Positions 2,565 to 28,798 of a stretch of DNA of 64,000 nucleotides are shown here, one piece after another. The stretch is from Candidatus Saccharimonadota bacterium (lineage in GTDB: Bacteria > Patescibacteriota > Saccharimonadia > Saccharimonadales > Saccharimonadaceae): positions 34,600-98,599 of the forward strand of contig WRNW01000001.1 of the NCBI GenBank assembly GCA_009776375.1, in the 5' to 3' direction. The translations under genes were made by a program, and so were the position numbers. Numbering within the stretch: the first letter of the stretch is position 1; every line of letters starts with the position of its first letter. The notes beneath the pieces were generated by a model. The model was not told the origin of the DNA. It worked only from the letters and a program-made list of their open reading frames with translations, and ran no database searches.

Positions 2565-3715
2565 TGTTCGATTCCCCTGGCGAAGTTTAGTAGTTTTGTG
2601 TCAGATTTCATCGGCCCGATGATCTGTATGCCGTTTGGTAGGATCATGGCGGGCAACCCAGCCAGGCTAGCCATCATGCTCGCCTCGGTCGAATCAGCCG
2701 AACAAACCAAGCAATCATATCGATCAAATAATTTGTCCAGTTCACTAATCAACATCGTTCGCGCCTTCATAGCCTGCATATAATATTTCTCGAAATTCTC
2801 GGACGATAGCACATAAAAGCCAGTCAAAATATATTGTTTCATTTCGTCGCTAAAAATCTCGGCCCGTGAACGGCTATAGATCTCAGACAGAGTTTTCGCA
2901 TCTGCACGTTTACCATACCTGATCCCGTCGTATTGCATAAAGTTCGAGCTAACTTCCGCTGGCATTAGCGTCCAATAGATCGACTGAGCATATTTCGCCA
3001 TATTGAGCGAAATCTCACTAACTGAACATTTCACCTCTGTTAATTTTTTCCTTAATTGATTCGCGGTTTTTCCTTCACCGCCCACAAATTCTCTAATCAC
3101 ACCAATTTTAGATGTTGTGTTTTTTACAACATTGTCAAAATTAAAATCTTCTTTATTAAGCAAAGTACTGTCACGATCATCCGGGCCAGCCATAATTTGA
3201 CAAGCCGATTCGATGTCGGCGATCGAACTCGCGATCACGCCAATCGTGTCCATACTACTGGTCATAGTTGCTACGCCGTAGCGGCTAATCATACCATAGG
3301 TCGGTTTATAACCAATCACACCCCCGCTCGCCGCTGATTGTAGAACCGAACCGCCAGTATCAACGCCTAGTGCAAATTTTGTTGCACCATGCACGACTGA
3401 ATCAACTAACGTGTCATCGCGAGCGTAGCGTGGCGATCCAGGTTTATTGCTGGATTGCTTCGTCGTTTCACTCCTCGCAATGACCGTGTGGTGTGCCCCC
3501 CGTAATGACTTAATGTTTGCGTCAACCAAAACCGCGCCATCGGCCAGCAGCCGATCGACCGCCGTCGCCTGCACCGGCGAAACGAAATTTTCCATAATTT
3601 TGCCCGTCGCGGCGCTCTCGCGGCCTAGAGCTAAAATACGCCCGTCAATCGCGAACGATACACCGATCAGATGATTGACGTTTTTATTTTTAGCGTTTTT
3701 TGGAGGTTGGCTCAT
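2561..3715 (-). CDS. gatA: amidase-signature protein, divergent and short GatA-like subunit
   Basis: GVDTGGSVLQSAA, GYKPTYGMISRYG, SSMDTIGV and C-terminal LAGLPAMILP match the GatA/amidase fold, and it lies between gatC and gatB. Only 384 aa, with a degenerate signature (see findings). Confidence 0.6.
   Translation of the reverse strand: MSQPPKNAKNKNVNHLIGVSFAIDGRILALGRESAATGKIMENFVSPVQATAVDRLLADGAVLVDANIKSLRGAHHTVIARSETTKQSSNKPGSPRYARDDTLVDSVVHGATKFALGVDTGGSVLQSAASGGVIGYKPTYGMISRYGVATMTSSMDTIGVIASSIADIESACQIMAGPDDRDSTLLNKEDFNFDNVVKNTTSKIGVIREFVGGEGKTANQLRKKLTEVKCSVSEISLNMAKYAQSIYWTLMPAEVSSNFMQYDGIRYGKRADAKTLSEIYSRSRAEIFSDEMKQYILTGFYVLSSENFEKYYMQAMKARTMLISELDKLFDRYDCLVCSADSTEASMMASLAGLPAMILPNGIQIIGPMKSDTKLLNFARGIEQ
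3413..3484 (-). repeat. palindromic in-frame element, family A (72 bp) in gatA-like gene
   Basis: GTCATCGCGAG...GATCCAGG...CTGGATTGC...CTCGCAATGAC; translated VIARSETTKQSSNKPGSPRYARDD. Confidence 0.8.
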
Positions 3716-12499: not shown

Positions 12500-13365
12500 C
12501 GTAGTTCCTCTAGCGCTTTCCTAGCTTGTTCTTCATCCGGTGCGGTACCGTGCCATTTATAATCATTTTCCATGAAGCTAACGCCTTTGCCAGGGGTGGT
12601 GTGGGCCAAGATCACACTCGGCCGGTCGGTTTCAGCCCGAGCTTCACTGCAACCATCGATAATACTTTGTACATTATTGCCGTCAATTTCAATCACCTGC
12701 CAACCAAAAGCCGCCCATTTATCGTGCAGAATTTCCAGCGGCATGATTTCCTCTGTATCGCCGTCCAGCTGAATATTATTCCGATCCACAATCACGATCA
12801 GATTACCCAAACGATACTTAGCTGCGAACATCGCGCCTTCCCAAATATTGCCTTCGTCCAATTCGCCATCGCCGGTGATGCAATAGACGTACCTGTCATT
12901 GCGAGGAGTGGAGAGACGAAGCAATCCAGAATCATTTTCCGTCGCACTGGATTGCTTCGCTGCGCTCGCAATGACCCAGGCAGCACCCGCCGCCTGGCTG
13001 AGGCCTTCGCCCAGTGGTCCGGACGTCGTCTCTAGCCACGGTAATGCTGCGCGATGAGGATGACCCTGTAAACGCGAATTGAATTGACGCAGAGTCATGA
13101 GTTCTTCCTCGGGAATTAGGCCAGCCTCGGCCAGCGTTGCATATAGCACCGGGCAAACGTGGCCATTGCTCACCACCAAGATGTCACGATCCGGATCGTC
13201 CGGATTCTGCGGATTAAATTTCAGAATTTCAAAATACAGCGCCGCGAAAATATCTGCTAACCCTAAACTACCCGCCGGATGTCCCGACCCCGCCGCCGCA
13301 ATCATCCGAATAATATTGCGTCGGATGTTGGTGGCGTGTTGTTCGATTACTTTGATTGTTGGCAC
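12496..13365 (-). CDS. tkt: transketolase, N-terminal (TPP-binding) subunit
   Basis: GSGHPAGSLG and GDGELDEGNIWE; GTG start; carries an 81-bp palindromic insert. Confidence 0.85.
   Translation of the reverse strand: MPTIKVIEQHATNIRRNIIRMIAAAGSGHPAGSLGLADIFAALYFEILKFNPQNPDDPDRDILVVSNGHVCPVLYATLAEAGLIPEEELMTLRQFNSRLQGHPHRAALPWLETTSGPLGEGLSQAAGAAWVIASAAKQSSATENDSGLLRLSTPRNDRYVYCITGDGELDEGNIWEGAMFAAKYRLGNLIVIVDRNNIQLDGDTEEIMPLEILHDKWAAFGWQVIEIDGNNVQSIIDGCSEARAETDRPSVILAHTTPGKGVSFMENDYKWHGTAPDEEQARKALEELR
12895..12975 (-). repeat. palindromic in-frame element, family A (81 bp) in tktN
   Basis: GTCATTGCGAGG...GCAATCCAG...CTGGATTGC...CTCGCAATGAC; translated VIASAAKQSSATENDSGLLRLSTPRND. Confidence 0.85.
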
Positions 13366-17908: not shown

Positions 17909-17938
17909 TTGACATGATAAAAATGCTTGTGCTACAAT
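17909..17938 (+). promoter_or_regulatory. canonical promoter TTGACA-18-TGCTACAAT for the TasA-like operon
   Basis: -35 at 17909-17914 and -10 at 17933-17938. The 5' UTR hairpin TCTCAA-GTATTG-TTGAGA (17958-17975) abuts the SD. Confidence 0.7.
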
Positions 17939-17991
17939 AGGGGACGTCAATTTAAATTCTCAAGTATTGTTGAGAAGGAGGGTAATAAGTA

Positions 17992-18618
17992 ATGGCAAAA
18001 AAGAAAAATCTAGGGCTCGACAAGAAGACCCTGAATTACATCATCGCTGGTTTTGCGGTGTTGGTTTTGGGCGGTGTTGTCTGGGCAGCTTCGACGGGTG
18101 TGCTACAAATCACTGGTTCGGTCAGTCGCGGTACATCAGTTGACCTCGACTTTATCACGGCATCATGCGTTACGCCGAAAACCGGTTATGGCACCGATGG
18201 TGTCACCTCGACCGGCGCGGCTGGCGGTGACCTCGGTTGCGGTCTCGTGATCGGTAATCGACCGGCCGTGGCTAACGGGGCTAACGACACTTTGACATTT
18301 GGTATGTTCCTAGGTGACGCTGGCGACGCGGAAACTGTCCAGTTCTATATCAAGAACGTTGGTGCGGTTGATACAACTCTTAGCGCAATTAATGTGACTG
18401 ATACAACCGGTTTTGGGGCCAGCCCAACTGGTAATGATATCACGCTCGGTGGTACTTATGCTTCAGGACTCGCTTCCCCGCTGTGTCTCGAGCCAGGTGA
18501 TCAGGTTGGACCATTCACCATTTCGGCGACTTGGCCATCAGGTTTGACTGGTGCGAGTGGCGATGCGTCGTTTGCAGCCGATCTTGATTATGCGGAAGCT
18601 TCCGTTGCTTGTATCTAG
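17992..18618 (+). CDS. TasA/camelysin-like secreted protein, paralog 1
   Basis: Basic N-terminus, TM helix, VWA|ASTGVLQITG, DAGDAETVQFYIKNVGAV, ATWPSG. Confidence 0.55.
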   Translation: MAKKKNLGLDKKTLNYIIAGFAVLVLGGVVWAASTGVLQITGSVSRGTSVDLDFITASCVTPKTGYGTDGVTSTGAAGGDLGCGLVIGNRPAVANGANDTLTFGMFLGDAGDAETVQFYIKNVGAVDTTLSAINVTDTTGFGASPTGNDITLGGTYASGLASPLCLEPGDQVGPFTISATWPSGLTGASGDASFAADLDYAEASVACI

Positions 18619-18654
18619 AAACGTAACTAAAAAGACGAAAAGTTAGGAGAAGAA

Positions 18655-19188
18655 ATGGCGCTCCGAAAAAGAGTTAACTTACGCAGGTTAGCAGCGCCAA
18701 TTGCAGTAGCTGCGGTGTTAGTCGTGTCTGGTATCGTCTACGCCGCAGCTTCTGGCTATCTCAATTTTAGTGGTTCAGTCGGGCGGAATGCCAGCTGTAA
18801 ATTAAATATTGAGGCAGCGAGCAATGTCAATTCTAGTTCGACGACGCTCTATCAGGCGGATCCGACCGTCACCGCGACGGTTGATGGATCGACGCGCGAA
18901 ACTCTGAGTTTTTCGACCAACCTGACCTATGGCGATCCCGCCAAGGAAATCACTTTCCAGGTGATCAATGTCGGCAACTGTTACCAAGAGCTCGGTGAGT
19001 TAGAAATTTTGACCTCGCCCAGTAATGGTATCACTGTGACTTGGCCAGATCTCGATGGTCTTCAACTCGAGCCAGAAGCTTCGACCGGAACGATGACGAT
19101 CGAAGTCGAGTGGGCGTCTAATCCGTCGTCACAAACCACTGAAACAATGTCAGCCAGGATTGATTATTTCGAATACGTTCCAGATTAG
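18655..19188 (+). CDS. TasA/camelysin-like secreted protein, paralog 2
   Basis: VYA|AASGYLNFSG, GDPAKEITFQVINVGN, VTWPDLDG. Confidence 0.55.
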   Translation: MALRKRVNLRRLAAPIAVAAVLVVSGIVYAAASGYLNFSGSVGRNASCKLNIEAASNVNSSSTTLYQADPTVTATVDGSTRETLSFSTNLTYGDPAKEITFQVINVGNCYQELGELEILTSPSNGITVTWPDLDGLQLEPEASTGTMTIEVEWASNPSSQTTETMSARIDYFEYVPD

Positions 19189-19237
19189 TCCTAAATAATA
19201 GGGGAAGGAGTTTGCTTGACCAAAGCTAGCAACAGCC

Positions 19238-19786
19238 ATGGCAAAGAAACTAAAGAAGCAATCGAGTTTTAAAAGAGCGGTCGCGTTCGCTAAACGACAT
19301 CGCGTCAGTATGTCGTTGATATTTTTGTTTTTCCTCGGTTTTATTTCGACAGGTCTAGCCTATGCGGCGGTGACTGGCGAATTACGCTGGTTTGGTACAA
19401 CGGCTTGGCTTAGTCAAACTAATGTTGATATTACTGGCGGTAAACTCCGTGACCTGAGTAATCCGGGAGATAGTCTAAGTGTTTCGATGGATGGTAAAAC
19501 CATAGTCTTTCATCTAGAATTTGAGAAAATCGATACACCAAAGTGGATTGATTTTTGTCTGACCAATAATGGTGCTGCGAACGTGTTATTTAGCACACCA
19601 ACGGTTTCACCACCAACCGATCCGAATGTCACGGTGATTTGGCCAGCGCTGGCGGGGGTGACGTTGAACGTTGGGCAAACTGTCTGTAACACGCTAACCC
19701 AGGTCCAGGTTTATTACACGGCGATGCCAACGAGCGGTCCTTATTCAGCAACGATGGATATGAGTATTAATTATGAGCAAATTTAA
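19238..19786 (+). CDS. TasA/camelysin-like secreted protein, paralog 3
   Basis: AYA|AVTGELRWFG, WIDFCLTNNGAA, VIWPALAG. Confidence 0.5.
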   Translation: MAKKLKKQSSFKRAVAFAKRHRVSMSLIFLFFLGFISTGLAYAAVTGELRWFGTTAWLSQTNVDITGGKLRDLSNPGDSLSVSMDGKTIVFHLEFEKIDTPKWIDFCLTNNGAANVLFSTPTVSPPTDPNVTVIWPALAGVTLNVGQTVCNTLTQVQVYYTAMPTSGPYSATMDMSINYEQI

Positions 19787-20378
19787 TGATGATAAATTAA
19801 AGAGTCATAGTTCCGTCAATATCTATAAACGGCGTTATTCGGCACGTGTGAAATTATTAATCGCCATCATGGTTTTTGCTTTTTCGTTTTCGGTTTCGTC
19901 GGTTTATGCGTTGTCGACCGGTTGGTTGACAATGACAGGTCTGGCGGCGCGCACCGAAATTATCCAAGCGATTTTTTCTTCGGCGAATTTGGTCGGAGCA
20001 CCGCGGGCGGGCGAAACTGTGACAATTTCCTCGGCGGATGCTGATCGGGTGATTAATGCTTCGTTGCTGCTGGCTGGACCGGGCGATTCGCGAACTATTC
20101 AATTCAAAATTACCAATACTGGTAACCAGGCGATTCGTTTGCTGAATCTGTCGCCTTATGTCGAGAGTAGCGGTACTGGGCTAACTGTGCAGTGGCCGGA
20201 TGATATTGGTGGTACGCCCAATCTAACGAATTATGTGATAACACCAGGTACAACGTCAGATACTTTTTCGATTATTGTTGGTTGGGATGTTAGTGCGACG
20301 AATGTTGATACCGGTTTGTTTCGTAATTTCTCGATGACTTTTAGTTTTCAGAATGCTAGTTTACCATATGGACCATAA
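19773..20378 (+). CDS. TasA/camelysin-like secreted protein, paralog 4
   Basis: VYA|LSTGWLTMTG. LAGPGDSRTIQFKITNTGNQAIRL resembles the TasA NLKPGD..F.F.NNGSLAI block. VQWPDDIG. Confidence 0.55.
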   Translation: MSKFNDDKLKSHSSVNIYKRRYSARVKLLIAIMVFAFSFSVSSVYALSTGWLTMTGLAARTEIIQAIFSSANLVGAPRAGETVTISSADADRVINASLLLAGPGDSRTIQFKITNTGNQAIRLLNLSPYVESSGTGLTVQWPDDIGGTPNLTNYVITPGTTSDTFSIIVGWDVSATNVDTGLFRNFSMTFSFQNASLPYGP

Positions 20379-20396
20379 AAGGAGGATCTATTAGAA

Positions 20397-21056
20397 ATGA
20401 CAGTGCCAGTTAAAAGAACCATTCGCAAAATCGCTAGCCTTAGCGCGGTGATGGCTTTTACTGGTTTGGTGATTAGTCTAGGGATTACCTATGCGGTTGG
20501 CGCGGGCCAAATGGAGATTAGCGGGCAGGCGTTCTTTATGGTGCAGAGTGGACTCGATCCGTTGATTTTGCCGATCGCACCGACGCCAGATGGTAATGGA
20601 GATTATTTTACATTTAATGCTACTGGTAATGGTACAGTGCAAATTCTTGAGCAGGATTACCTGAGCGGTGACCTGTATCTGTCAATTTGTGCGATGAACT
20701 CGAACAACGGTAATGTTTCGGGGTCGTTTACGTTTGCTTTTGCTAATCCAACAGTTTATGACTGGACGAGTGGCAGTGCCAGCTTCGTTTCACCCTGGCC
20801 GGTCAATCAGGGAGGTCTAGCAAATAATTCCTTTACCTTTAACTCGAGTTCGGTTTCACCAACGACTTTGTTGGCTGGTAATTCCGCCACCGTGACGTTT
20901 GCTTTCCAGGCCCAACTCGGCAAACCTGCTACTCAGGGTTCAGCGATTATTACGGTGCAATACACTGTCGCCGAGGATTATCTCCAACCGATCAAACAAA
21001 CGCATATTTATGTGAAATATTATCCGCGTGACGCGACTTATGGATGTAGCCTATGA
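20397..21056 (+). CDS. TasA/camelysin-like secreted protein, paralog 5 (most divergent)
   Basis: TYA|VGAGQMEISG and SPWPVNQG; same architecture; ATGA overlap with the peptidase gene. Confidence 0.45.
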   Translation: MTVPVKRTIRKIASLSAVMAFTGLVISLGITYAVGAGQMEISGQAFFMVQSGLDPLILPIAPTPDGNGDYFTFNATGNGTVQILEQDYLSGDLYLSICAMNSNNGNVSGSFTFAFANPTVYDWTSGSASFVSPWPVNQGGLANNSFTFNSSSVSPTTLLAGNSATVTFAFQAQLGKPATQGSAIITVQYTVAEDYLQPIKQTHIYVKYYPRDATYGCSL

Positions 21057-22204
21057 TCAAGAAAAAGTGGTTGGTTTTAATTATTTACACCGCCATGGTG
21101 GTAATTCACGGTCTGGCTCTAGTTATTCCAGCGAATTTTTATGATACTTATTTTAATATCCTCCGACCGCTCGCCTACATCGCGCTAGTGATTTTTGCTT
21201 ACTTTAGTTTTGGCAAGAATTACCGGCTGCATGGTGGGAAAACTACCCTGACGATGGTGGCGATTTTGGGAGTGGTTCTCTATGTTGGATTTACTTTCGC
21301 TGCCGGATTGTTCACTAATTTTGCGGCCAATGCGATGGATACTTCGCCGCTGGGACTGTTGCGCAATGGTTGGGCGTATCTCCTGGTGATTGTTATTCGT
21401 GAACTATTGCGCGCCCAGATTATGACGTCGTTTGGCGAAAAGTCGAAATACTGGATGTGCATTGTCATGACGATTGTCTTTACGTTCTGCTGTATCGATA
21501 ATTTACCAAATGTGCTGCGTTTTGATCTCTGGCAACAGGTTGATTATATCTTTACGACGCTGCTGCCGCTGCTGGCGCTGAACCTCTGGCTGTCTTATTC
21601 GGCGCTCAATGGTGGTCTAACTAGTAACTTGATTTTCATTTGTGCCTATTACGCGGTCGCGCTATTTTGTCCGATTCTGCCGAATATTCCGAAAATTCTC
21701 GATGCGATTGCGATTTATTGTATTACCTTTATTATGTTTATTATTTATGACAGTATCGAATGGATGGCCAAACGCCGCGATGGTTTGAATGTCCAATATC
21801 ACGACAAACGTCATTGGTGGGTGATGATTTTCCCCGGGATCGTGCTAGCGGTTTGTGTGATGTTTGGTCTAGGTATTTTTCCGATTATTCCGGTGGCGGT
21901 GGCGTCTGATTCGATGTCACCCGAATTCAAACATGGCGATTTGGTTTATGTCATCAAAATACCGATTGATGATTTGGAGCGGGGCGATATTTTGCAATAT
22001 ACCCAAGGCAACATCTCGATTGTTCATCGGATAATCGACATTAAATACACGCCGAGCGGTGCGCGTTATTTTGTCACCCAGGGCGATAATAATGCGACTC
22101 CTGATGTCTGGCCGGTTTACGACCACCAAGTGGTTGGCAAGGCCATCGCCCATACCCCTTTCATTGGTTGGCCAGCTTTACTATTTCAAGGTTTAAGGGA
22201 ATAA
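21053..22204 (+). CDS. archaeal/ER (SipW)-type signal peptidase I fused to an N-terminal polytopic membrane domain
   Basis: C-terminal 100 aa: SDSMSPEFKHGDLV, IVHRI, TQGDNN (Ser/His S26B-type pattern). The first ~280 aa contain ~7-8 hydrophobic helices. Confidence 0.7.
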   Translation: MIKKKWLVLIIYTAMVVIHGLALVIPANFYDTYFNILRPLAYIALVIFAYFSFGKNYRLHGGKTTLTMVAILGVVLYVGFTFAAGLFTNFAANAMDTSPLGLLRNGWAYLLVIVIRELLRAQIMTSFGEKSKYWMCIVMTIVFTFCCIDNLPNVLRFDLWQQVDYIFTTLLPLLALNLWLSYSALNGGLTSNLIFICAYYAVALFCPILPNIPKILDAIAIYCITFIMFIIYDSIEWMAKRRDGLNVQYHDKRHWWVMIFPGIVLAVCVMFGLGIFPIIPVAVASDSMSPEFKHGDLVYVIKIPIDDLERGDILQYTQGNISIVHRIIDIKYTPSGARYFVTQGDNNATPDVWPVYDHQVVGKAIAHTPFIGWPALLFQGLRE

Positions 22205-22249
22205 AATGGGGTTGCCAAAACGTTTAAGTTTAACTACAATAGAAAGGAT

Positions 22250-23398
22250 ATGATGAAGAAAAGTAAGAAAAGTTCTACAAAAAATGCATCGACCAAGGCC
22301 GAAGTTAGGACAGGTTTTGTCGCCCTAGCGGTAGTGTGTTTCGTAATCGCAGCGGCGGGTGTAGTGTCGTTCCTTTTAAAAACCGTTGGTGCTGAAGCTC
22401 CGGCTGACTATATTCATATGGCCGAAACTAGTGGTATCGATTACCAGGTCTACCTCAAACCGGACAACGGCGTGGTTAATAAACCATATCTCGGGATGAA
22501 CGAAACTTATACTTATGATATTGTCGATCGTATCGTTTTCACCAATTCTTATACTAGTCAATTGTCGCAAGCCACCAACGTTAAATATAATTACTCGGCG
22601 ACGATTTCGTTTATTGCTCGTGTCGCTCGGGGTAATATTATTAGCGATTCTGATCCAATTATCGCCGAGGAAGTGGTCGAAACACTCTGGCAATATGACG
22701 CTGACCAACCAGACGGCAATTCGAGTTTAGTCGAACGATCCGAAATTAATTTGGAGCGTTTCCGCGATAAGTATTCATCGATTAAATCTAGTTTGGATTT
22801 CACCGTCAGCGGTGAAATTCGGATTGATCTCGTCGTCAAGGCTAGCGATGGCGCTTCGCTCAATAACGAGTACAAACGTTCGATCACGATTCCGATTAGT
22901 CAATCTTACTTTGAAATCAAACTGGGTGGCGAAGACAAAAAAGAAACTGATTTCAATGCACCATCACGAACCACTGCCGAAGTGTTAGCTTTAGTGGCGC
23001 TGGGCGCGGGAGCGATTGGTGCTTTCGCGGTGATGCTCTTTTGCATCAAAAAAGCCCTCAGCTATAAATCCTGGTATCGCGAAGAAATCGATGCGTTGCT
23101 CAGTGATTACGATGACGCGATCATTGCGACCACCACGACGGTCAATCCCAAACACTACAAAGAACACATTGCGGTCGAGAGTTTCAAAGAAATGTTACAA
23201 CTAGCGACCGATATCGGCGAACCGATCATGTACTATGAGACTTCGAAAACGGCGGATTTCTACATTCCCAAGGAAGATATTTTATACACTTTCGTGATTA
23301 GAAAAACCGCCAAAGAACCAGAAGAATTCAAACCTCGACGCGAAATCGAGGCCGAAGAAGAAAAAGCCCTAGCCCACGGCAGCGATCAAAAAGAATAA
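22250..23398 (+). CDS. two-TM membrane protein with large external domain (DUF5305-like architecture, uncertain)
   Basis: TM1 VALAVVCFVIAAAGVVSFLL, a ~210-aa external domain, TM2 LALVALGAGAIGAFAVMLFCI, and a ~110-aa cytoplasmic tail. Confidence 0.45.
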   Translation: MMKKSKKSSTKNASTKAEVRTGFVALAVVCFVIAAAGVVSFLLKTVGAEAPADYIHMAETSGIDYQVYLKPDNGVVNKPYLGMNETYTYDIVDRIVFTNSYTSQLSQATNVKYNYSATISFIARVARGNIISDSDPIIAEEVVETLWQYDADQPDGNSSLVERSEINLERFRDKYSSIKSSLDFTVSGEIRIDLVVKASDGASLNNEYKRSITIPISQSYFEIKLGGEDKKETDFNAPSRTTAEVLALVALGAGAIGAFAVMLFCIKKALSYKSWYREEIDALLSDYDDAIIATTTTVNPKHYKEHIAVESFKEMLQLATDIGEPIMYYETSKTADFYIPKEDILYTFVIRKTAKEPEEFKPRREIEAEEEKALAHGSDQKE

Positions 23399-24000: not shown

Positions 24001-25020
24001 TTACGACTGCACCGCCATGTCGAATGGCTGGTCGGTGATTGGTTGATCGGTCGTTAACGCCACGATTTTGGCTTCGGTTTCTTGTTTGAAAGCCTGAACT
24101 TCGTCGTAGATCCGAGCGGCTTCAGCGGCAGCTCTGGCGGATTCGGCCTTGGCATCAGCCGCACGCGCCAAAACCTCGTTGACAATTTCGCGCGCGTCTT
24201 CGAATCGTTCGACCTTACCGTCTGGCGGTTTTTTGATCAAGAATTCATCCGCCACATTCGGCACGGTGATACTCGGTGAATGTTCGTGGACGGCTTTGTC
24301 GATCGCCTCCAAAATGCTCCGTGCAGCCTCCGTAGCGCGCCTCAGCGCCTCATCGAATTCCTCCGTGTAAGTTTTAACGAAAGCCACTTTGTCCGGATCG
24401 TCCACACCGGGCATTTTGAACTTGAGCTCCGAAGCAAACGGCGGTGGTTCTGGTGTTGTCGTCTCAGGCATCGCGGGTTCTGGTTCTGGCATAACTGGTT
24501 CCGGCACGACCGGTTCTGGGATTGATGGTTCTGGGATTGATGGTTCTGGGATAATTTGTTCTGGTGTCAGCTCCGGCTCTGACGCCGCTTTGGCTGGTGC
24601 GGGAGGCATCAACTCCGGCGGCAATTCGAGTGCTGGTTCTTCTTCGTACTCGGTCGGGAGTAAAACCGACATATCTTCAACTGGCGCACTTGGCGGCCTA
24701 GTTTCGCCAACCTTGGACCAATCGTTGGTAGCGATAGTTTCATTAGGTATGATATCGTCGTCTTGGTCAGCAACAGGCGGTGCGGTCGTCGTTGTAGTTG
24801 AATCATCAGTACCCGCTAGCGGATCGCCAATTTGCGTTGTCGATGCCCGTGGACTAGCAGTCGTCGGATCGGGTGTCGTGGCGGCAGCAGGGTCACTGTT
24901 CTCCGCACCGAGCAATGAATCCGCATCAATCGCCGCCGAACCGCCCACCGGTGCCACGCTGTCCGCTGGCGCACTACTCGCACTCGCATTATCTTCGCTG
25001 AACAGCGTTGAAACGTCCAC
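24001..25020 (-). CDS. Pro/Glu/Thr-rich low-complexity protein with helical C-terminal domain
   Basis: IPEPSIPEPSIPEPVVPEPVMPEPEP from 15-bp repeats; GTG start after AAAGGTGG. Confidence 0.5.
   Translation of the reverse strand: MDVSTLFSEDNASASSAPADSVAPVGGSAAIDADSLLGAENSDPAAATTPDPTTASPRASTTQIGDPLAGTDDSTTTTTAPPVADQDDDIIPNETIATNDWSKVGETRPPSAPVEDMSVLLPTEYEEEPALELPPELMPPAPAKAASEPELTPEQIIPEPSIPEPSIPEPVVPEPVMPEPEPAMPETTTPEPPPFASELKFKMPGVDDPDKVAFVKTYTEEFDEALRRATEAARSILEAIDKAVHEHSPSITVPNVADEFLIKKPPDGKVERFEDAREIVNEVLARAADAKAESARAAAEAARIYDEVQAFKQETEAKIVALTTDQPITDQPFDMAVQS
24473..24562 (-). repeat. 6 x 15-bp in-frame tandem repeat (PEPxx units)
   Basis: GGGATTGATGGTTCT twice exactly, flanked by degenerate copies. 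Confidence 0.8.
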
Positions 25021-25978: not shown

Positions 25979-28798
25979 TTAAATTACTTTTGCTCTCAGC
26001 TCCTTCTTCGCCAGATCCGCAATTCCATCTATTATACCAGCAATTTCTTTGCTATTCAAAGTTTTTTCATAAGACGCGAAAGTTAGTTTGAAACTGATAT
26101 TTTTGGTCTTTTTGTCCTCTCCCTGCCAGATCGAAACCGGAACACACTGAAACCATAAATTCTGTTCGGTCAAAGTTTTACAGAGGAGATTTTCGAGTTT
26201 TGCATATTCCAAATCGGAATATACTCGAAAAGTTATGTCACGTTCGACTTCTGGAAAATCGCTACGTTTCGAAACATCATTCACGCCAGACACAGCCGCC
26301 ATTAAATTATTAATATTGATTTCAAAGCCCGCCACTTCGTCGGGTAACTTGAAACTTCGCCGAACCGTCGTACGATAATTACCAACAATACCCAAAATCT
26401 TGTCGGTTTTCGCATCACGTATATCAGCCGTTCGTTTCAACTCGAATGGCACAGTCCAAGAATTTTGCACTTCGACTGATTTGAAAACCACATCCACGCC
26501 CAGAGCCTTGAATAAATCTTCGGCATATTTTTTGGCTCTATAAAAAGAGCCTTCTTGATCGCTCACCAGGACTAACCCCAACGCATTTTCAACTATCGGC
26601 ACACCGCCGTCTTTTGGATCCTTATGAAACTTGATGAATTCTTTATCGAAAACCTGGTTTATTTCGAACAGTGCGAACTCATCGAACTTGTCTTTGATGT
26701 TTGGGCTTACTTTTTCCAGCAAACTGGGCGTTATCATTTGGCGAATATATTGCAATTCAGGACTAATCGAATTGATGATTTTATAAGAGTTTTTGGAATC
26801 TTGTCCAACATTTTTTAACAGCTTTTCACTGATGAACGAATAGGTCAACACCTCATTAGCGCCAGCTTCTGACAGAATCTGGCGGATTTTCGATTTTAGA
26901 TCACCTAAAGTATCTGGTGTCGGCGACACAAAATCCCGCCGCGGCAAGCGTGCCGGGATGTTGTCATAACCGTTGAGCCGTCCAATTTCCTCAATCACGT
27001 CCTCGGCAATATGAATATCCGTTCGCCACCACGGTGCGGTAACTTTAAGGTAGCCACCGTCATTGCGAGGAGCGGAGCGACGCGGCAATCCAGAATCGTT
27101 TCTAATCGCACTGGATTGCTTTGTTGCGCTCGCAATGACGCCACTTCCCAGTGTTACTTTGAACCCAACATTCGACAGCGTGGTAATAATATCGTCAAAA
27201 GTAAAACCACTACCCAGCAGATTATTCACTTGTTCTGTTGTAACTTTTACAACAGGTGGTTTAACCGGTTTTGGATAAGCATCAACAATTTCGCTAACCG
27301 ACTTCATACCATGGTCGTTCGTCAGCGTTCTGATCGCTTCGCATAAAACCGGATCGGTCAAGGCTGGTGGTTGACCTTTGGTGAAACGCGTGATAGCTTC
27401 GCTAAAAATTCCGTGTCTAAACTGCGTTCCACGTAGATTATACAAACTAAACGTCGCCGATTCGATGACGATGCGGCGGGTCGATTCGTCGATTTCGGTA
27501 TTTTTACCACCCATCGCCCCAGCCAACGCTACTGGCACGTTGTTGCTGGTGATAACGATGTCACCCGGATCCAGCTCGATCGTTTTATCATCGAGTAGCT
27601 CGAGTTTTTCATTCTTTTTCGCCGCACGAACGATTATATGAGCGTTGTCATTCTGAGCCGCAGACGAAGAATCTCTTGAACTTTCTTTAGATCCTTCGCT
27701 CCGCTCAGGATGACAGCCTACGGCTATCAACTTATCATAATCAAAAGCATGCAGCGGCTGTCCGGTTAACAGCATCAAATAATTCGTCACATCCACAATC
27801 GGATTAATCGAACGCATGCCAGATTTGGCTAGCAGCACCGCCATCTCGGATAAATATTTCGACGGCTTGTCGTCAAATCCATCCAACACCAACGCCTGAT
27901 AGCGTGGGCAAAGTTTCGGATCTGTTATCTCAACATCCAATTCTATTGTGTCATTGCGACCGCGAGCGCGCGAAGCGAGCGTGGCGGGAAGCAATCCAGT
28001 ATCATTATCAGCCGCACTAGATTGCTCTTGCCCAGCACCTGCTTTAGCTGGTGCTGTGGTCGTCGTTACACTCCTCGCAATGACATCTGGCTCTTGAAAT
28101 TCTTTCCCCAAAATCCCCGCGACTTCGCGCGCAAAACCAATCACGCCAAAGCAATCTGGTCGATGAGTCAGCGATTTATTTTCAATATCTAGTAGTGTGT
28201 CATTCAGGTCAAATACTTCGGCGAAGTCATCGCCCGGTTTCGCCATTTCGGGGTTTATCTCGATAATTCCTGCGTGATCCGCGCCCAGGTCTAGCTCGTC
28301 CATAGCGGCAAGCATCCCAGCCGATTCCACCCCCATGACTTTACGTTTATCTAAAACCAATGGTTCAGAATTAAATGTTGCTGGCAAAACTGTTTTTGGT
28401 GGCAACCAAACCGCCAACATACCAGTCCGCACATTCGGTGCGCCACAAACAACCTGAATTAAATTGTCATCGCGATCCGCCCCACCGTCATTGCGACCGC
28501 GAGCGAGCGAAGCAAGCGTGGCGGGAAACAATCCAGGGTCATCGCCAGTCGCACTAGATTGCTTCGTCGTTACACTCCTCGCAATGACACCAGTATCAAC
28601 CTGACAAACTGTCAAGTGATCACTGCCGGGAATTTTTTCAACCGATCTGACTTCAACAATTTTAATCCCACGATATTTTTCGCCCAAGTCGATCACTTCT
28701 TCAACTTCAACCAATCGTGATCCGATTAGCTCGACCAACTCGTTTGTCGGCAGATCAATATCAACGTATTTTTTCAACCAATCTAATGAAATAATCAT
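25979..28798 (-). CDS. pheT: phenylalanine--tRNA ligase beta subunit
   Basis: MIISLDWLKKYVDI start, tRNA-binding, B3/B4 and C-terminal domains; 939 aa because of four palindromic inserts. Confidence 0.9.
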   Translation of the reverse strand: MIISLDWLKKYVDIDLPTNELVELIGSRLVEVEEVIDLGEKYRGIKIVEVRSVEKIPGSDHLTVCQVDTGVIARSVTTKQSSATGDDPGLFPATLASLARGRNDGGADRDDNLIQVVCGAPNVRTGMLAVWLPPKTVLPATFNSEPLVLDKRKVMGVESAGMLAAMDELDLGADHAGIIEINPEMAKPGDDFAEVFDLNDTLLDIENKSLTHRPDCFGVIGFAREVAGILGKEFQEPDVIARSVTTTTAPAKAGAGQEQSSAADNDTGLLPATLASRARGRNDTIELDVEITDPKLCPRYQALVLDGFDDKPSKYLSEMAVLLAKSGMRSINPIVDVTNYLMLLTGQPLHAFDYDKLIAVGCHPERSEGSKESSRDSSSAAQNDNAHIIVRAAKKNEKLELLDDKTIELDPGDIVITSNNVPVALAGAMGGKNTEIDESTRRIVIESATFSLYNLRGTQFRHGIFSEAITRFTKGQPPALTDPVLCEAIRTLTNDHGMKSVSEIVDAYPKPVKPPVVKVTTEQVNNLLGSGFTFDDIITTLSNVGFKVTLGSGVIASATKQSSAIRNDSGLPRRSAPRNDGGYLKVTAPWWRTDIHIAEDVIEEIGRLNGYDNIPARLPRRDFVSPTPDTLGDLKSKIRQILSEAGANEVLTYSFISEKLLKNVGQDSKNSYKIINSISPELQYIRQMITPSLLEKVSPNIKDKFDEFALFEINQVFDKEFIKFHKDPKDGGVPIVENALGLVLVSDQEGSFYRAKKYAEDLFKALGVDVVFKSVEVQNSWTVPFELKRTADIRDAKTDKILGIVGNYRTTVRRSFKLPDEVAGFEININNLMAAVSGVNDVSKRSDFPEVERDITFRVYSDLEYAKLENLLCKTLTEQNLWFQCVPVSIWQGEDKKTKNISFKLTFASYEKTLNSKEIAGIIDGIADLAKKELRAKVI
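27059..27139 (-). repeat. palindromic in-frame element, family A (81 bp) in pheT
   Basis: About 85 percent identical by eye to the tktN copy; translated VIASATKQSSAIRNDSGLPRRSAPRND. Confidence 0.85.
27647..27714 (-). repeat. palindromic in-frame element, family B (~68 bp) in pheT
   Basis: GTCATTCTGAGCCGCAGACGAAGAATC...GATCCTTCGCTCCGCTCAGGATGAC; translated CHPERSEGSKESSRDSSSAAQND. Confidence 0.7.
27950..28084 (-). repeat. palindromic in-frame element, family A with nested 33-bp hairpin module (135 bp) in pheT
   Basis: Same backbone as 28487-28588, plus CTCTTGCCCAGCACCTGCTTTAGCTGGTGCTGTGGT. Confidence 0.8.
28487..28588 (-). repeat. palindromic in-frame element, family A (102 bp) in pheT
   Basis: GTCATTGCGACCGCGAGCG...CAATCCAGG...CTAGATTGC...CTCGCAATGAC. 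An extra arm fragment, GTCATCGCGATCC, lies at 28466-28478. Confidence 0.8.

Follow-up and report, generated by a model that had tools for sequence, protein, structure and literature searches.

The closest described relatives of the locus analyzed here are the AbpX loci. AbpX is the fiber subunit of Pyrodictium abyssi (PDB 9sj2/9rhp), and Sleutel et al. report that its loci combine major and minor subunits, a tip protein, a signal peptidase I (SPase I) with ten transmembrane (TM) helices, and a DUF5305 protein (bioRxiv 10.64898/2026.01.04.697558). According to the same preprint (bioRxiv 10.64898/2026.01.04.697558), such loci are found in Archaea (Thermoproteota), Bacillota, and Chloroflexota, AbpX homologs have acidic mature subunits, and an aromatic residue at position 2 together with an acidic residue at position 4 is structurally critical for the calcium-mediated strand complementation of AbpX. 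Here, we describe seven genes, g1 to g7, from a contig of Candidatus Saccharimonadota bacterium (WRNW01000001.1); they lie within the 64,000-nucleotide stretch of DNA that was analyzed (the window) and probably form one operon encoding an AbpX-type surface-fiber module of the TasA superfamily.

Two better-known systems are also relevant. TasA, encoded by the tapA-sipW-tasA operon of Bacillus subtilis, forms fibers that assemble through donor-strand exchange (PMC9674648), and this operon is without a DUF5305 partner (bioRxiv 10.64898/2026.01.04.697558; PMC9245690). The haloarchaeal Tat (twin-arginine translocation)-fimbriae, or Tafi, consist of the pilins TafA and TafE, the peptidase TafD, and the DUF5305 protein TafG; TafD is involved in TafA processing, and its knockout abolishes the fiber (PMC11821415, PMC12337348). 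Homologs of TasA of the PF12389 type were noted in Patescibacteria in PNAS in 2022 (PMC9245690). An earlier reading of this DNA, made from the sequence only, knew of no equivalent described for epibionts of the candidate phyla radiation or of the Saccharibacteria type. Given this preprint and the Patescibacteria homologs, the novelty suggested there went too far. Our literature searches found no study of TasA- or AbpX-type fibers or of AbpX-type loci in Saccharibacteria. The type of system is already known and no new class is proposed; what is new is the host lineage and a variant donor strand.

The features of the locus are as follows.

17909 to 17938, plus strand: predicted promoter, sigma-70 type with extended -10 (consensus match at 11 of 12 positions, with TG)
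17992 to 18618, plus strand: g1, 208 amino acids (aa); AbpX-like subunit and candidate major subunit, with a GGAGGG ribosome-binding site
18655 to 19188, plus strand: g2, 177 aa; AbpX-like subunit, predicted signal ..VYA↓AASGYLNFSG (the arrow marks cleavage)
19238 to 19786, plus strand: g3, 182 aa; AbpX-like subunit whose basic n-region is long, predicted signal ..AYA↓AVTGELRWFG
19773 to 20378, plus strand: g4, 201 aa; AbpX-like subunit, predicted signal ..VYA↓LSTGWLTMTG, overlapping g3 by 14 nt
20397 to 21056, plus strand: g5, 219 aa; divergent subunit-like protein, predicted signal ..TYA↓VGAGQMEISG, overlapping the start of g6 by 4 nt
21053 to 22204, plus strand: g6, 383 aa; endoplasmic reticulum (ER)/archaeal-type SPase I behind a nine-helix membrane domain
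21053 to 21811, plus strand: N-terminal domain of g6, residues 1 to 253, with nine TM helices in the AlphaFold2 (AF2) model
21812 to 22204, plus strand: C-terminal part of g6, residues 254 to 383, with an anchor helix (255 to 273) and the SPase I domain
22212 to 22240, plus strand: possible internal promoter within the 45 nt that separate g6 from g7 (TTGCCA, 17 nt, TACAAT; a consensus match only, at 10 of 12 positions)
22250 to 23398, plus strand: g7, 382 aa; two-TM protein of the DUF5305 family

The seven genes are co-directional, with intergenic distances of -14 to +49 nt, and the open reading frame (ORF) list and promoter scan agree with the arrangement first described, a promoter followed by seven genes. 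The promoter candidate is made up of TTGACA (17909 to 17914), an 18-nt spacer with TGc at its end, and TACAAT (17933 to 17938). It was the top-scoring site between 17500 and 24000, in a scan whose overall yield was little above that of shuffled sequences (17 sites versus 10.5 ± 3.2). No convincing terminator was seen within the cluster, and Rfam and tRNA scans returned nothing relevant there. Public gene calls are the same as ours, save that g7 is given as 381 aa (one residue at the start), and NCBI names the cluster proteins as those of "Candidatus Saccharibacteria bacterium" (locus tags FWH58_00255 onward). The internal promoter-like site upstream of g7 could allow separate expression of that gene.

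Proteins g1 to g5 share one N-terminal plan. Each has a basic n-region, a single long hydrophobic helix, and a cleavage-type site (VWA, VYA, AYA, VYA, and TYA, respectively) that obeys the -3/-1 rule, and in each the motif (S/T/A)G-x-(L/M)-x3-G begins two residues past that site. The plan is as the sequence-only reading gave it; every site and motif it quoted is present, including (T/V)-x-WP, and the block LAGPGDSRTIQFKITNTGNQAIRL is located in g4. In g1, the predicted signal peptide spans residues 1 to 32 (..VWA↓AS) and leaves a mature part of 176 aa with four Cys residues and an isoelectric point (pI) of 4.05. All five mature proteins are acidic, with pI values of 4.05 to 4.43 and an Asp plus Glu content of 6 to 13%. 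Export by the Tat route was considered for the RR pairs in g2 and g4 and was rejected because the n-regions of the family are Lys-rich and show no S/T-R-R-x-F-L-K pattern.

An exhaustive profile search over 1.84 billion representatives (cutoff E ≤ 1e-3) found 374 relatives of the subunit family, mostly 160 to 220 aa in length and with the same N-terminal plan. A repeat protein search with a 117-sequence family alignment returned 13 proteins and did not broaden the set. Against an independent family hidden Markov model, g1 scored an E value of 3.6e-34, g2 8.5e-38, g3 9.9e-22, and g4 5.6e-37. Conservation across the 117 sequences peaks at the Y-A of the cleavage site, at the L and G of the N-terminal strand, at PGD..F..N.G, and at a Trp and a Tyr, and the alternating hydrophobic segment L-x-(F/I)-x-G-x-(A/V) directly past the cleavage site is among the best-conserved parts. 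By these profile scores, g1 to g4 belong firmly to a large family of secreted β-sandwich proteins of small size. They are demonstrable paralogs of one another, so the original count of five paralogs holds for four; what g5 has in common with them is confined to the signal peptide and the N-terminal strand. For g1 to g5, no family reached a useful threshold in the Pfam and NCBIfam scans, and weak library matches (UpsA, LPxTATN, CcmE, and DUF7507) were set aside as effects of the TM helix or of a generic β-sandwich.

Among proteins of solved structure, AbpX is the best and only clearly significant relative of this family. A profile of the paralogs matched AbpX (9rhp/9sj2) with an E value of about 1e-5, and the 117-sequence profile did so at 2.5e-8 over 119 profile positions, placing the family segment S-G-t-L-t-i-s-G-t-a in register with S3-E-T-L-S-L-S-A-T of AbpX (residues 3 to 12, the donor strand). 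This segment falls within the first 12 residues past the cleavage site, which count among the family's best-conserved columns. With an AbpX fragment as the query, family members were matched directly at 1e-7 to 1e-5, and jackhmmer seeded with AbpX on a local database recovered g1 (3.7e-18), g2 (2.7e-21), g3 (1e-13), and g4 (5.9e-21). The same 117-sequence profile reached B. subtilis TasA (5of1/8aur) at a borderline E value of about 2e-3, over the block NLKPGDKLTKDFQFENNGSLAI. Profile searches, which were one part of the check proposed beforehand, have found TasA superfamily relatives. On these alignments, g1 to g4 are placed in the AbpX branch of the TasA superfamily and are not members of the Pfam TasA/camelysin family PF12389 (Peptidase_M73), for which none of g1 to g5 gave a match at E ≤ 1. 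The label "TasA/camelysin-like" of the sequence-only reading is corrected to this extent; the PGD...F.F.N.G block to which that reading had pointed is precisely the one aligned with TasA.

By profile score and conserved residues, g6 is an ER/archaeal-type SPase I with Ser287 and His325. It scored 82.7 bits against TIGR02228 (archaeal-type signal peptidase I; cutoff 51.85), and Ser287 (in SDSMSP), His325 (in VHRI), and Asp345 and Asp351 (in GDNN..PD) are invariant in 29 full-length homologs. Against the SipW equivalog model NF046067, it scored 48.7 bits versus a cutoff of 190. The earlier assignment to a "SipW-type" peptidase was thus right about the class and the SDSMSP, VHRI, and GDNN motifs, but g6 falls outside the SipW equivalog group and has nine additional TM helices. 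In the AF2 model (mean predicted local distance difference test [pLDDT] 83.0), nine TM helices are followed by the anchor helix at 255 to 273 and by the catalytic β domain; the helices before the anchor include residues 4 to 24, 27 to 53, 63 to 88, 99 to 126, 129 to 147, 159 to 185, 189 to 205, and 214 to 242, with a short one at 151 to 155. Two TM helices are typical of prokaryotic SPase I (bioRxiv 10.64898/2026.01.04.697558). Foldseek gave human SEC11A/C as the best neighbors (7p2p and 7p2q; E value 1.3e-5, TM-score on the target 0.62), and the third-best neighbor of the catalytic domain was Streptococcus pyogenes SipA (4n31). The nine-helix part matched no Pfam family and no PDB fold. Homologs of g6 align over the full length, and the membrane domain has its own invariant residues among the 29 homologs (P39, G85, F90, E117, R120, L171, P172, P207, L209, and P210), with P207-x-L-P as an invariant motif.

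The protein encoded next, g7, matches PF17231 (DUF5305) with an E value of 1.3e-19 (71 bits; cutoff 29). The two TM spans expected for it are there (residues 16 to 50 and 241 to 270), and they set off a middle domain outside the cytoplasm and a C-terminal domain inside it. DUF5305 has been proposed as an SPase accessory (bioRxiv 10.64898/2026.01.04.697558) and is represented by TafG in the haloarchaeal Tafi (PMC11821415, PMC12337348). We accordingly propose g7 as a candidate accessory subunit of the signal peptidase.

To see how far this arrangement is shared, we scanned one genome per GTDB species with the Saccharibacteria-type subset of the peptidase alignment and found 361 peptidase relatives, of which 82 loci were analyzed for synteny. 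A DUF5305 gene was nearby in 71 of the 82 and directly downstream of the peptidase in 62, and one to six subunit family genes lay within 6 kb of the peptidase in 70. Where there was enough flanking DNA, 49 of 55 loci had both. The subunit genes are therefore co-conserved with the peptidase, as had been predicted. The hosts include Bacillota (Clostridia, Bacilli, and Mycoplasmatota), Chloroflexota, some metagenome-assembled genomes (MAGs) of Deltaproteobacteria, and many Archaea. Among the Mycoplasmatota with the module are strains WC44 and zrk6 (L031 and L035), which are either cultivable or represented by complete genomes.

Some relatives are fused. In four loci of Hadesarchaea/Hadarchaeota (L018, 2267 to 4120; L021, 4247 to 6352; L026, 1242 to 3113; L033, 3902 to 5818), the peptidase is a multi-TM ORF of about 620 to 700 aa that also matches the subunit family profile (E values of 7e-4 to 1e-10), so that in these loci the peptidase and a subunit-like domain seem to form one fused protein. 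In a Desulfurococcales MAG (L074, 7713 to 10052), one ORF of 779 aa is matched by the peptidase profile as well as by DUF5305. Fusions of the latter kind are known from Anaerolinea and others (bioRxiv 10.64898/2026.01.04.697558).

Set beside the described systems, the locus is like the AbpX loci in the sequence similarity of g1 to g4 (donor strand included), in its acidic subunits, in having several paralogs plus a divergent one, in its dedicated ten-TM SPase I, and in the DUF5305 gene directly downstream. It differs from them in its donor strand (A-x-x-G-x-L-x-F-x-G rather than x-W-x-[D/E]-x-L), in a lower Asp plus Glu content (6 to 13%), in the lack of an LPXTG or S-layer homology (SLH) anchor, a sortase, and a regulator in the cluster, and in its host, a reduced-genome member of Saccharibacteria, a phylum not listed in the description of the AbpX loci (bioRxiv 10.64898/2026.01.04.697558). 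With tapA-sipW-tasA, it has in common a dedicated ER/archaeal-type SPase I encoded with β-sandwich substrates and, with TasA, the block L-x-PGD-x5-F-x-F-x-N-x-G (the match at about 2e-3); unlike that operon, it has no TapA-like gene, no PF12389 protein among g1 to g5, and a peptidase that falls below the SipW cutoff and has nine additional TM helices. Tafi also place an SPase I and DUF5305 pair next to several donor-strand pilin paralogs, but the Tafi pilins mostly have Tat signals, in contrast to the Sec-like, Lys-rich n-regions here, and TafD, which has a second outside domain, crosses the membrane with four TM segments, whereas g6 has ten TM helices. S. pyogenes SipA, a LepA-type homolog (4n31), is likewise a signal-peptidase fold dedicated to a surface fiber; its entry title describes a signal peptidase homolog essential for polymerization of a sortase-type pilus, whereas g6 keeps Ser287 and His325 and no sortase or LPXTG pilin is encoded in the cluster.

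These comparisons suggest a model in which the g1 to g5 preproteins, with their Lys/Arg-rich n-region, long hydrophobic helix, and (V/A/T)-(Y/W)-A site, would be exported through Sec; g6, with the two-TM DUF5305 protein g7 as its partner, would then cut them behind (Y/W)-A. Cleavage would free a conserved amphipathic N-terminal strand (A-x-x-G-x-L-x-[F/I]-x-G), which could then be donated into the incomplete β-sandwich of the next subunit, giving a thin extracellular fiber by donor-strand complementation. The AF2 model of g1, built from the 117-sequence alignment (pLDDT 83.2; predicted TM-score 0.72), has a signal helix and ten β strands, and its mature N terminus (residues 35 to 51) is free and without regular structure. 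As the first of the seven genes, and the one with the strongest ribosome-binding site, g1 is taken to encode the likely major subunit; g2 to g4 would be minor subunits and g5 likely a tip or base. Such a fiber, probably acquired from Bacillota by a sublineage of termite-gut Saccharibacteria, might serve in adhesion or matrix formation.

It is also conceivable that g1 to g5 are secreted or surface β-sandwich proteins that do not polymerize (CARDB-like adhesins, coat or matrix proteins) and need the peptidase for maturation, the N-terminal motif then being a recognition element for the peptidase or for export and not a donor strand. Several observations weigh on this side and against a fiber. 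Polymerization by donor-strand complementation is argued from homology, and g1 to g5 are without the Trp2 and acidic-4 residues of AbpX. The PGD..F.I.N.G block occurs as well in CARDB, DUF11, and choice-of-anchor-D β-sandwich domains and in the globular part of 8q30, a type IV pilin from an archaeon; because the block alone is unspecific, it is the long alignment with AbpX and the gene context that mainly carry our argument. Family members weakly match CARDB, DUF7507, HYDIN/VesB-Ig, and DUF11, as well as repeats of a 2,414-aa choice-of-anchor-D protein. A Foldseek search of the PDB with the full-length g1 model, signal helix included, gave generic β-sandwiches only, none at E ≤ 1e-3, and neither TasA nor AbpX was in its top 50. 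The missing PF12389 matches, the absence of an anchor or sortase in the cluster, and the g5 body, which had no detectable relative among solved structures in a PDB sequence search, also count against the fiber reading. Against the nonpolymerizing alternative, AbpX, the one clearly significant solved relative, is a proven donor-strand fiber whose strand aligns in register; the several paralogs plus a divergent one per locus correspond to the major, minor, and tip organization of AbpX and Tafi loci; and the alternating hydrophobic segment past the cleavage site is among the best-conserved parts of the family. We therefore regard a nonpolymerizing role as unlikely. The core of the sequence-only reading, that secreted TasA superfamily-like subunits are encoded and co-conserved with a dedicated peptidase, has held, and a donor-strand fiber is a plausible outcome.

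The donor strand of the module comes in two forms. The subunits in the window start with A-x-x-G-x-L-x-(F/I)-x-G past the cleavage site, with S, A, V, S, and G at mature position 2 of g1 to g5, respectively, and G at position 4. AbpX and most subunits beside ten-TM peptidases start with x-W-x-(D/E)-x-L, and it is because the strand here reads otherwise that the aromatic-2 and acidic-4 residues are missing. Within the 117-sequence family, 80 members have Gly at position 4, and 73 begin in the same way as the window subunits; position 2 is A, S, V, or T. Across the 82 loci, 81 subunit ORFs were of the W/acidic type versus 18 of the Gly type. The Gly type occurs in the Saccharibacteria loci and in a few loci of Bacillota or Chloroflexota (it was seen in L002, L004, L006, L007, L009, and L010), and its occurrences are concentrated in the clade of peptidases to which the Saccharibacteria sequences belong. 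This concentration hints that the peptidase and the N terminus of its substrate may have co-evolved, and there are hints that the Gly-4 form could be a calcium-independent variant. A W/acidic-type cluster of four subunits, a ten-TM peptidase, and DUF5305 (L001, 3357 to 5184, on the 1.0-Mb contig ERZ21869602:ctg94708l) is found immediately downstream of two regulatory genes, one for a HisKA_3 histidine kinase that also has a 6TM_PilS domain and one for a response regulator of the LuxR/GerE type; the window cluster, unlike L001, has no such regulator.

Protein g5 stands apart from the other four. Its body has two Cys residues (C98 and C217) that are invariant in the alignment of its subfamily, and it was not recruited by the AbpX-seeded jackhmmer search. 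An hhalign comparison of the g5 subfamily with the independent family profile gave 96% probability, over columns 27 to 96 only, and 1.4% for the body alone. A result of 99.7% against the 117-sequence family alignment was discarded because that alignment holds g5-type sequences and the comparison is circular. The place directly upstream of the peptidase, which g5 takes here with its 4-nt overlap with g6, is filled in many Bacillota loci by a larger ORF with a weaker score, and for this reason we consider g5 a likely candidate for a tip, cap, base, or anchor subunit.

Three loci among the best 80 were labeled Saccharibacteria. All seven genes are collinear between the window and one of them (L004, from a MAG of termite-gut Saccharibacteria), whose flanks are unrelated to those of the window, and another locus (L002) has the module without g3, thus with only four small genes, among purine genes. 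Because the module is found in different flanks in L004 and L002, we conclude that it moves as a unit. In a neighbor-joining tree of the peptidases, which carries no support values, the Saccharibacteria sequences form one clade, and their nearest neighbors are termite-gut Bacillota MAGs (L006, L007, L008, L010, and L070). This position suggests horizontal acquisition in that habitat, and the termite-gut Saccharibacteria sublineage probably obtained the module from Bacillota. The L006 peptidase (WRII01000028.1, labeled Peptococcaceae, from termite gut) is 44% identical to g6, is sister to the Saccharibacteria clade, and is closer to Saccharibacteria than any other Bacillota sequence; L006 is either the donor lineage of the transfer or a mis-binned contig.

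The same tree, together with the rarity of the module among Saccharibacteria-labeled genomes, might be taken to mean that the window cluster is not Saccharibacterial at all but sits on a mis-binned or chimeric Bacillota contig. This is very unlikely. The window belongs to a 163,841-bp contig that NCBI annotates as Candidatus Saccharibacteria, the G+C content of the cluster (0.455 to 0.484) matches that of the window as a whole outside it, its immediate neighbors on the contig are housekeeping genes, and close orthologous clusters occur in different flanks on at least two other Saccharibacteria-labeled contigs.

A type IV pilin-like assembly, in which the N-terminal hydrophobic helix stays on to form the core of the filament and cleavage by a prepilin peptidase takes place ahead of it, would account for the long N-terminal helix and β-sandwich of the full-length g1 model and for the similarity of the family profile to the globular domain of the Sulfolobus acidocaldarius Aap pilin (8q30; E value 4.9e-4, 15th in the Foldseek ranking). 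We rejected it as extremely improbable: neither g1 to g5 nor the family N termini show G/A↓F-T-L-x-E, G/A↓F/M/L-x-x-x-E, or an archaeal class III motif; the n-regions are variable and Lys-rich; conservation lies at the C-terminal end of the helix, where the invariant Y-A↓A is an SPase I site; and the genes always adjoin an SPase I and not a prepilin peptidase, with no PilB or PilC in the cluster. The idea that g1 to g5 are camelysin-type (Peptidase M73) secreted metalloproteases, which has in its favor the historical TasA/camelysin Pfam name and weak PF12389 matches in 2 of 117 family members (best E value 0.0025), is scarcely credible and was likewise rejected, since g1 to g5 themselves lack any such match at E ≤ 1 and the family has no conserved His/Glu motif for metal binding.

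The AbpX-type fiber module has several implications if our reading is correct. Saccharibacteria live attached to host bacteria, and to our knowledge, type IV pili are the only fibers so far tied to this lifestyle. The locus would thus be a candidate for an adhesion fiber distinct from type IV pili in an epibiont, and a complete and compact fiber kit in a reduced genome would give a few Saccharibacteria lineages a second, mechanistically different route to a surface filament. More broadly, the module of subunits, ten-TM peptidase, and DUF5305 acts like a mobile cassette that has crossed phylum and domain boundaries. As a natural variant without the calcium-binding donor-strand residues, it could be used to test whether such fibers need calcium, and it also offers a compact test case for the role of the nine-helix domain.

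A more far-reaching proposal joins two parts, namely, that the nine-helix domain, with its invariant E117 and R120 and its P-x-L-P motif, is an assembly platform and more than a passive anchor, and that the Gly-4 fiber serves, next to type IV pili and independently of them, as another organelle of adhesion. We offer the two together as speculation and think the combination quite improbable. Were it true, the platform would couple signal-peptide cleavage to strand donation and keep a growing, chaperone-free fiber at the membrane of single-membrane cells, and a horizontally acquired, calcium-independent variant would attach termite-gut Saccharibacteria to their host bacteria.

Two other features of the window are worth recording. 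On the minus strand, positions 24001 to 25020 hold a 339-aa low-complexity ORF that is rich in Pro, Glu, Thr, and Ala and has PEPS(I/V)PEP repeats; its C-terminal part is Ala/Glu-rich and helix-like, and the public record lists no Pfam match for it. The window also contains at least five copies of a palindromic repeat element with GTCATTGCGA...TCGCAATGAC ends (3413 to 3484, 12895 to 12975, 27059 to 27139, 27950 to 28084, and 28487 to 28588), and its pattern gave 6 matches versus 0 expected from shuffled sequences. All copies lie inside protein-coding ORFs, and their lengths (72, 81, 81, 135, and 102 nt) are divisible by three. Three of them are within a 939-aa pheT-like gene on the minus strand (25979 to 28798), where they translate as "..ARSVTT..SSA..ND.GL.PATLAS.ARGRND..", and the element resembles the in-frame palindromic elements of Rickettsia.

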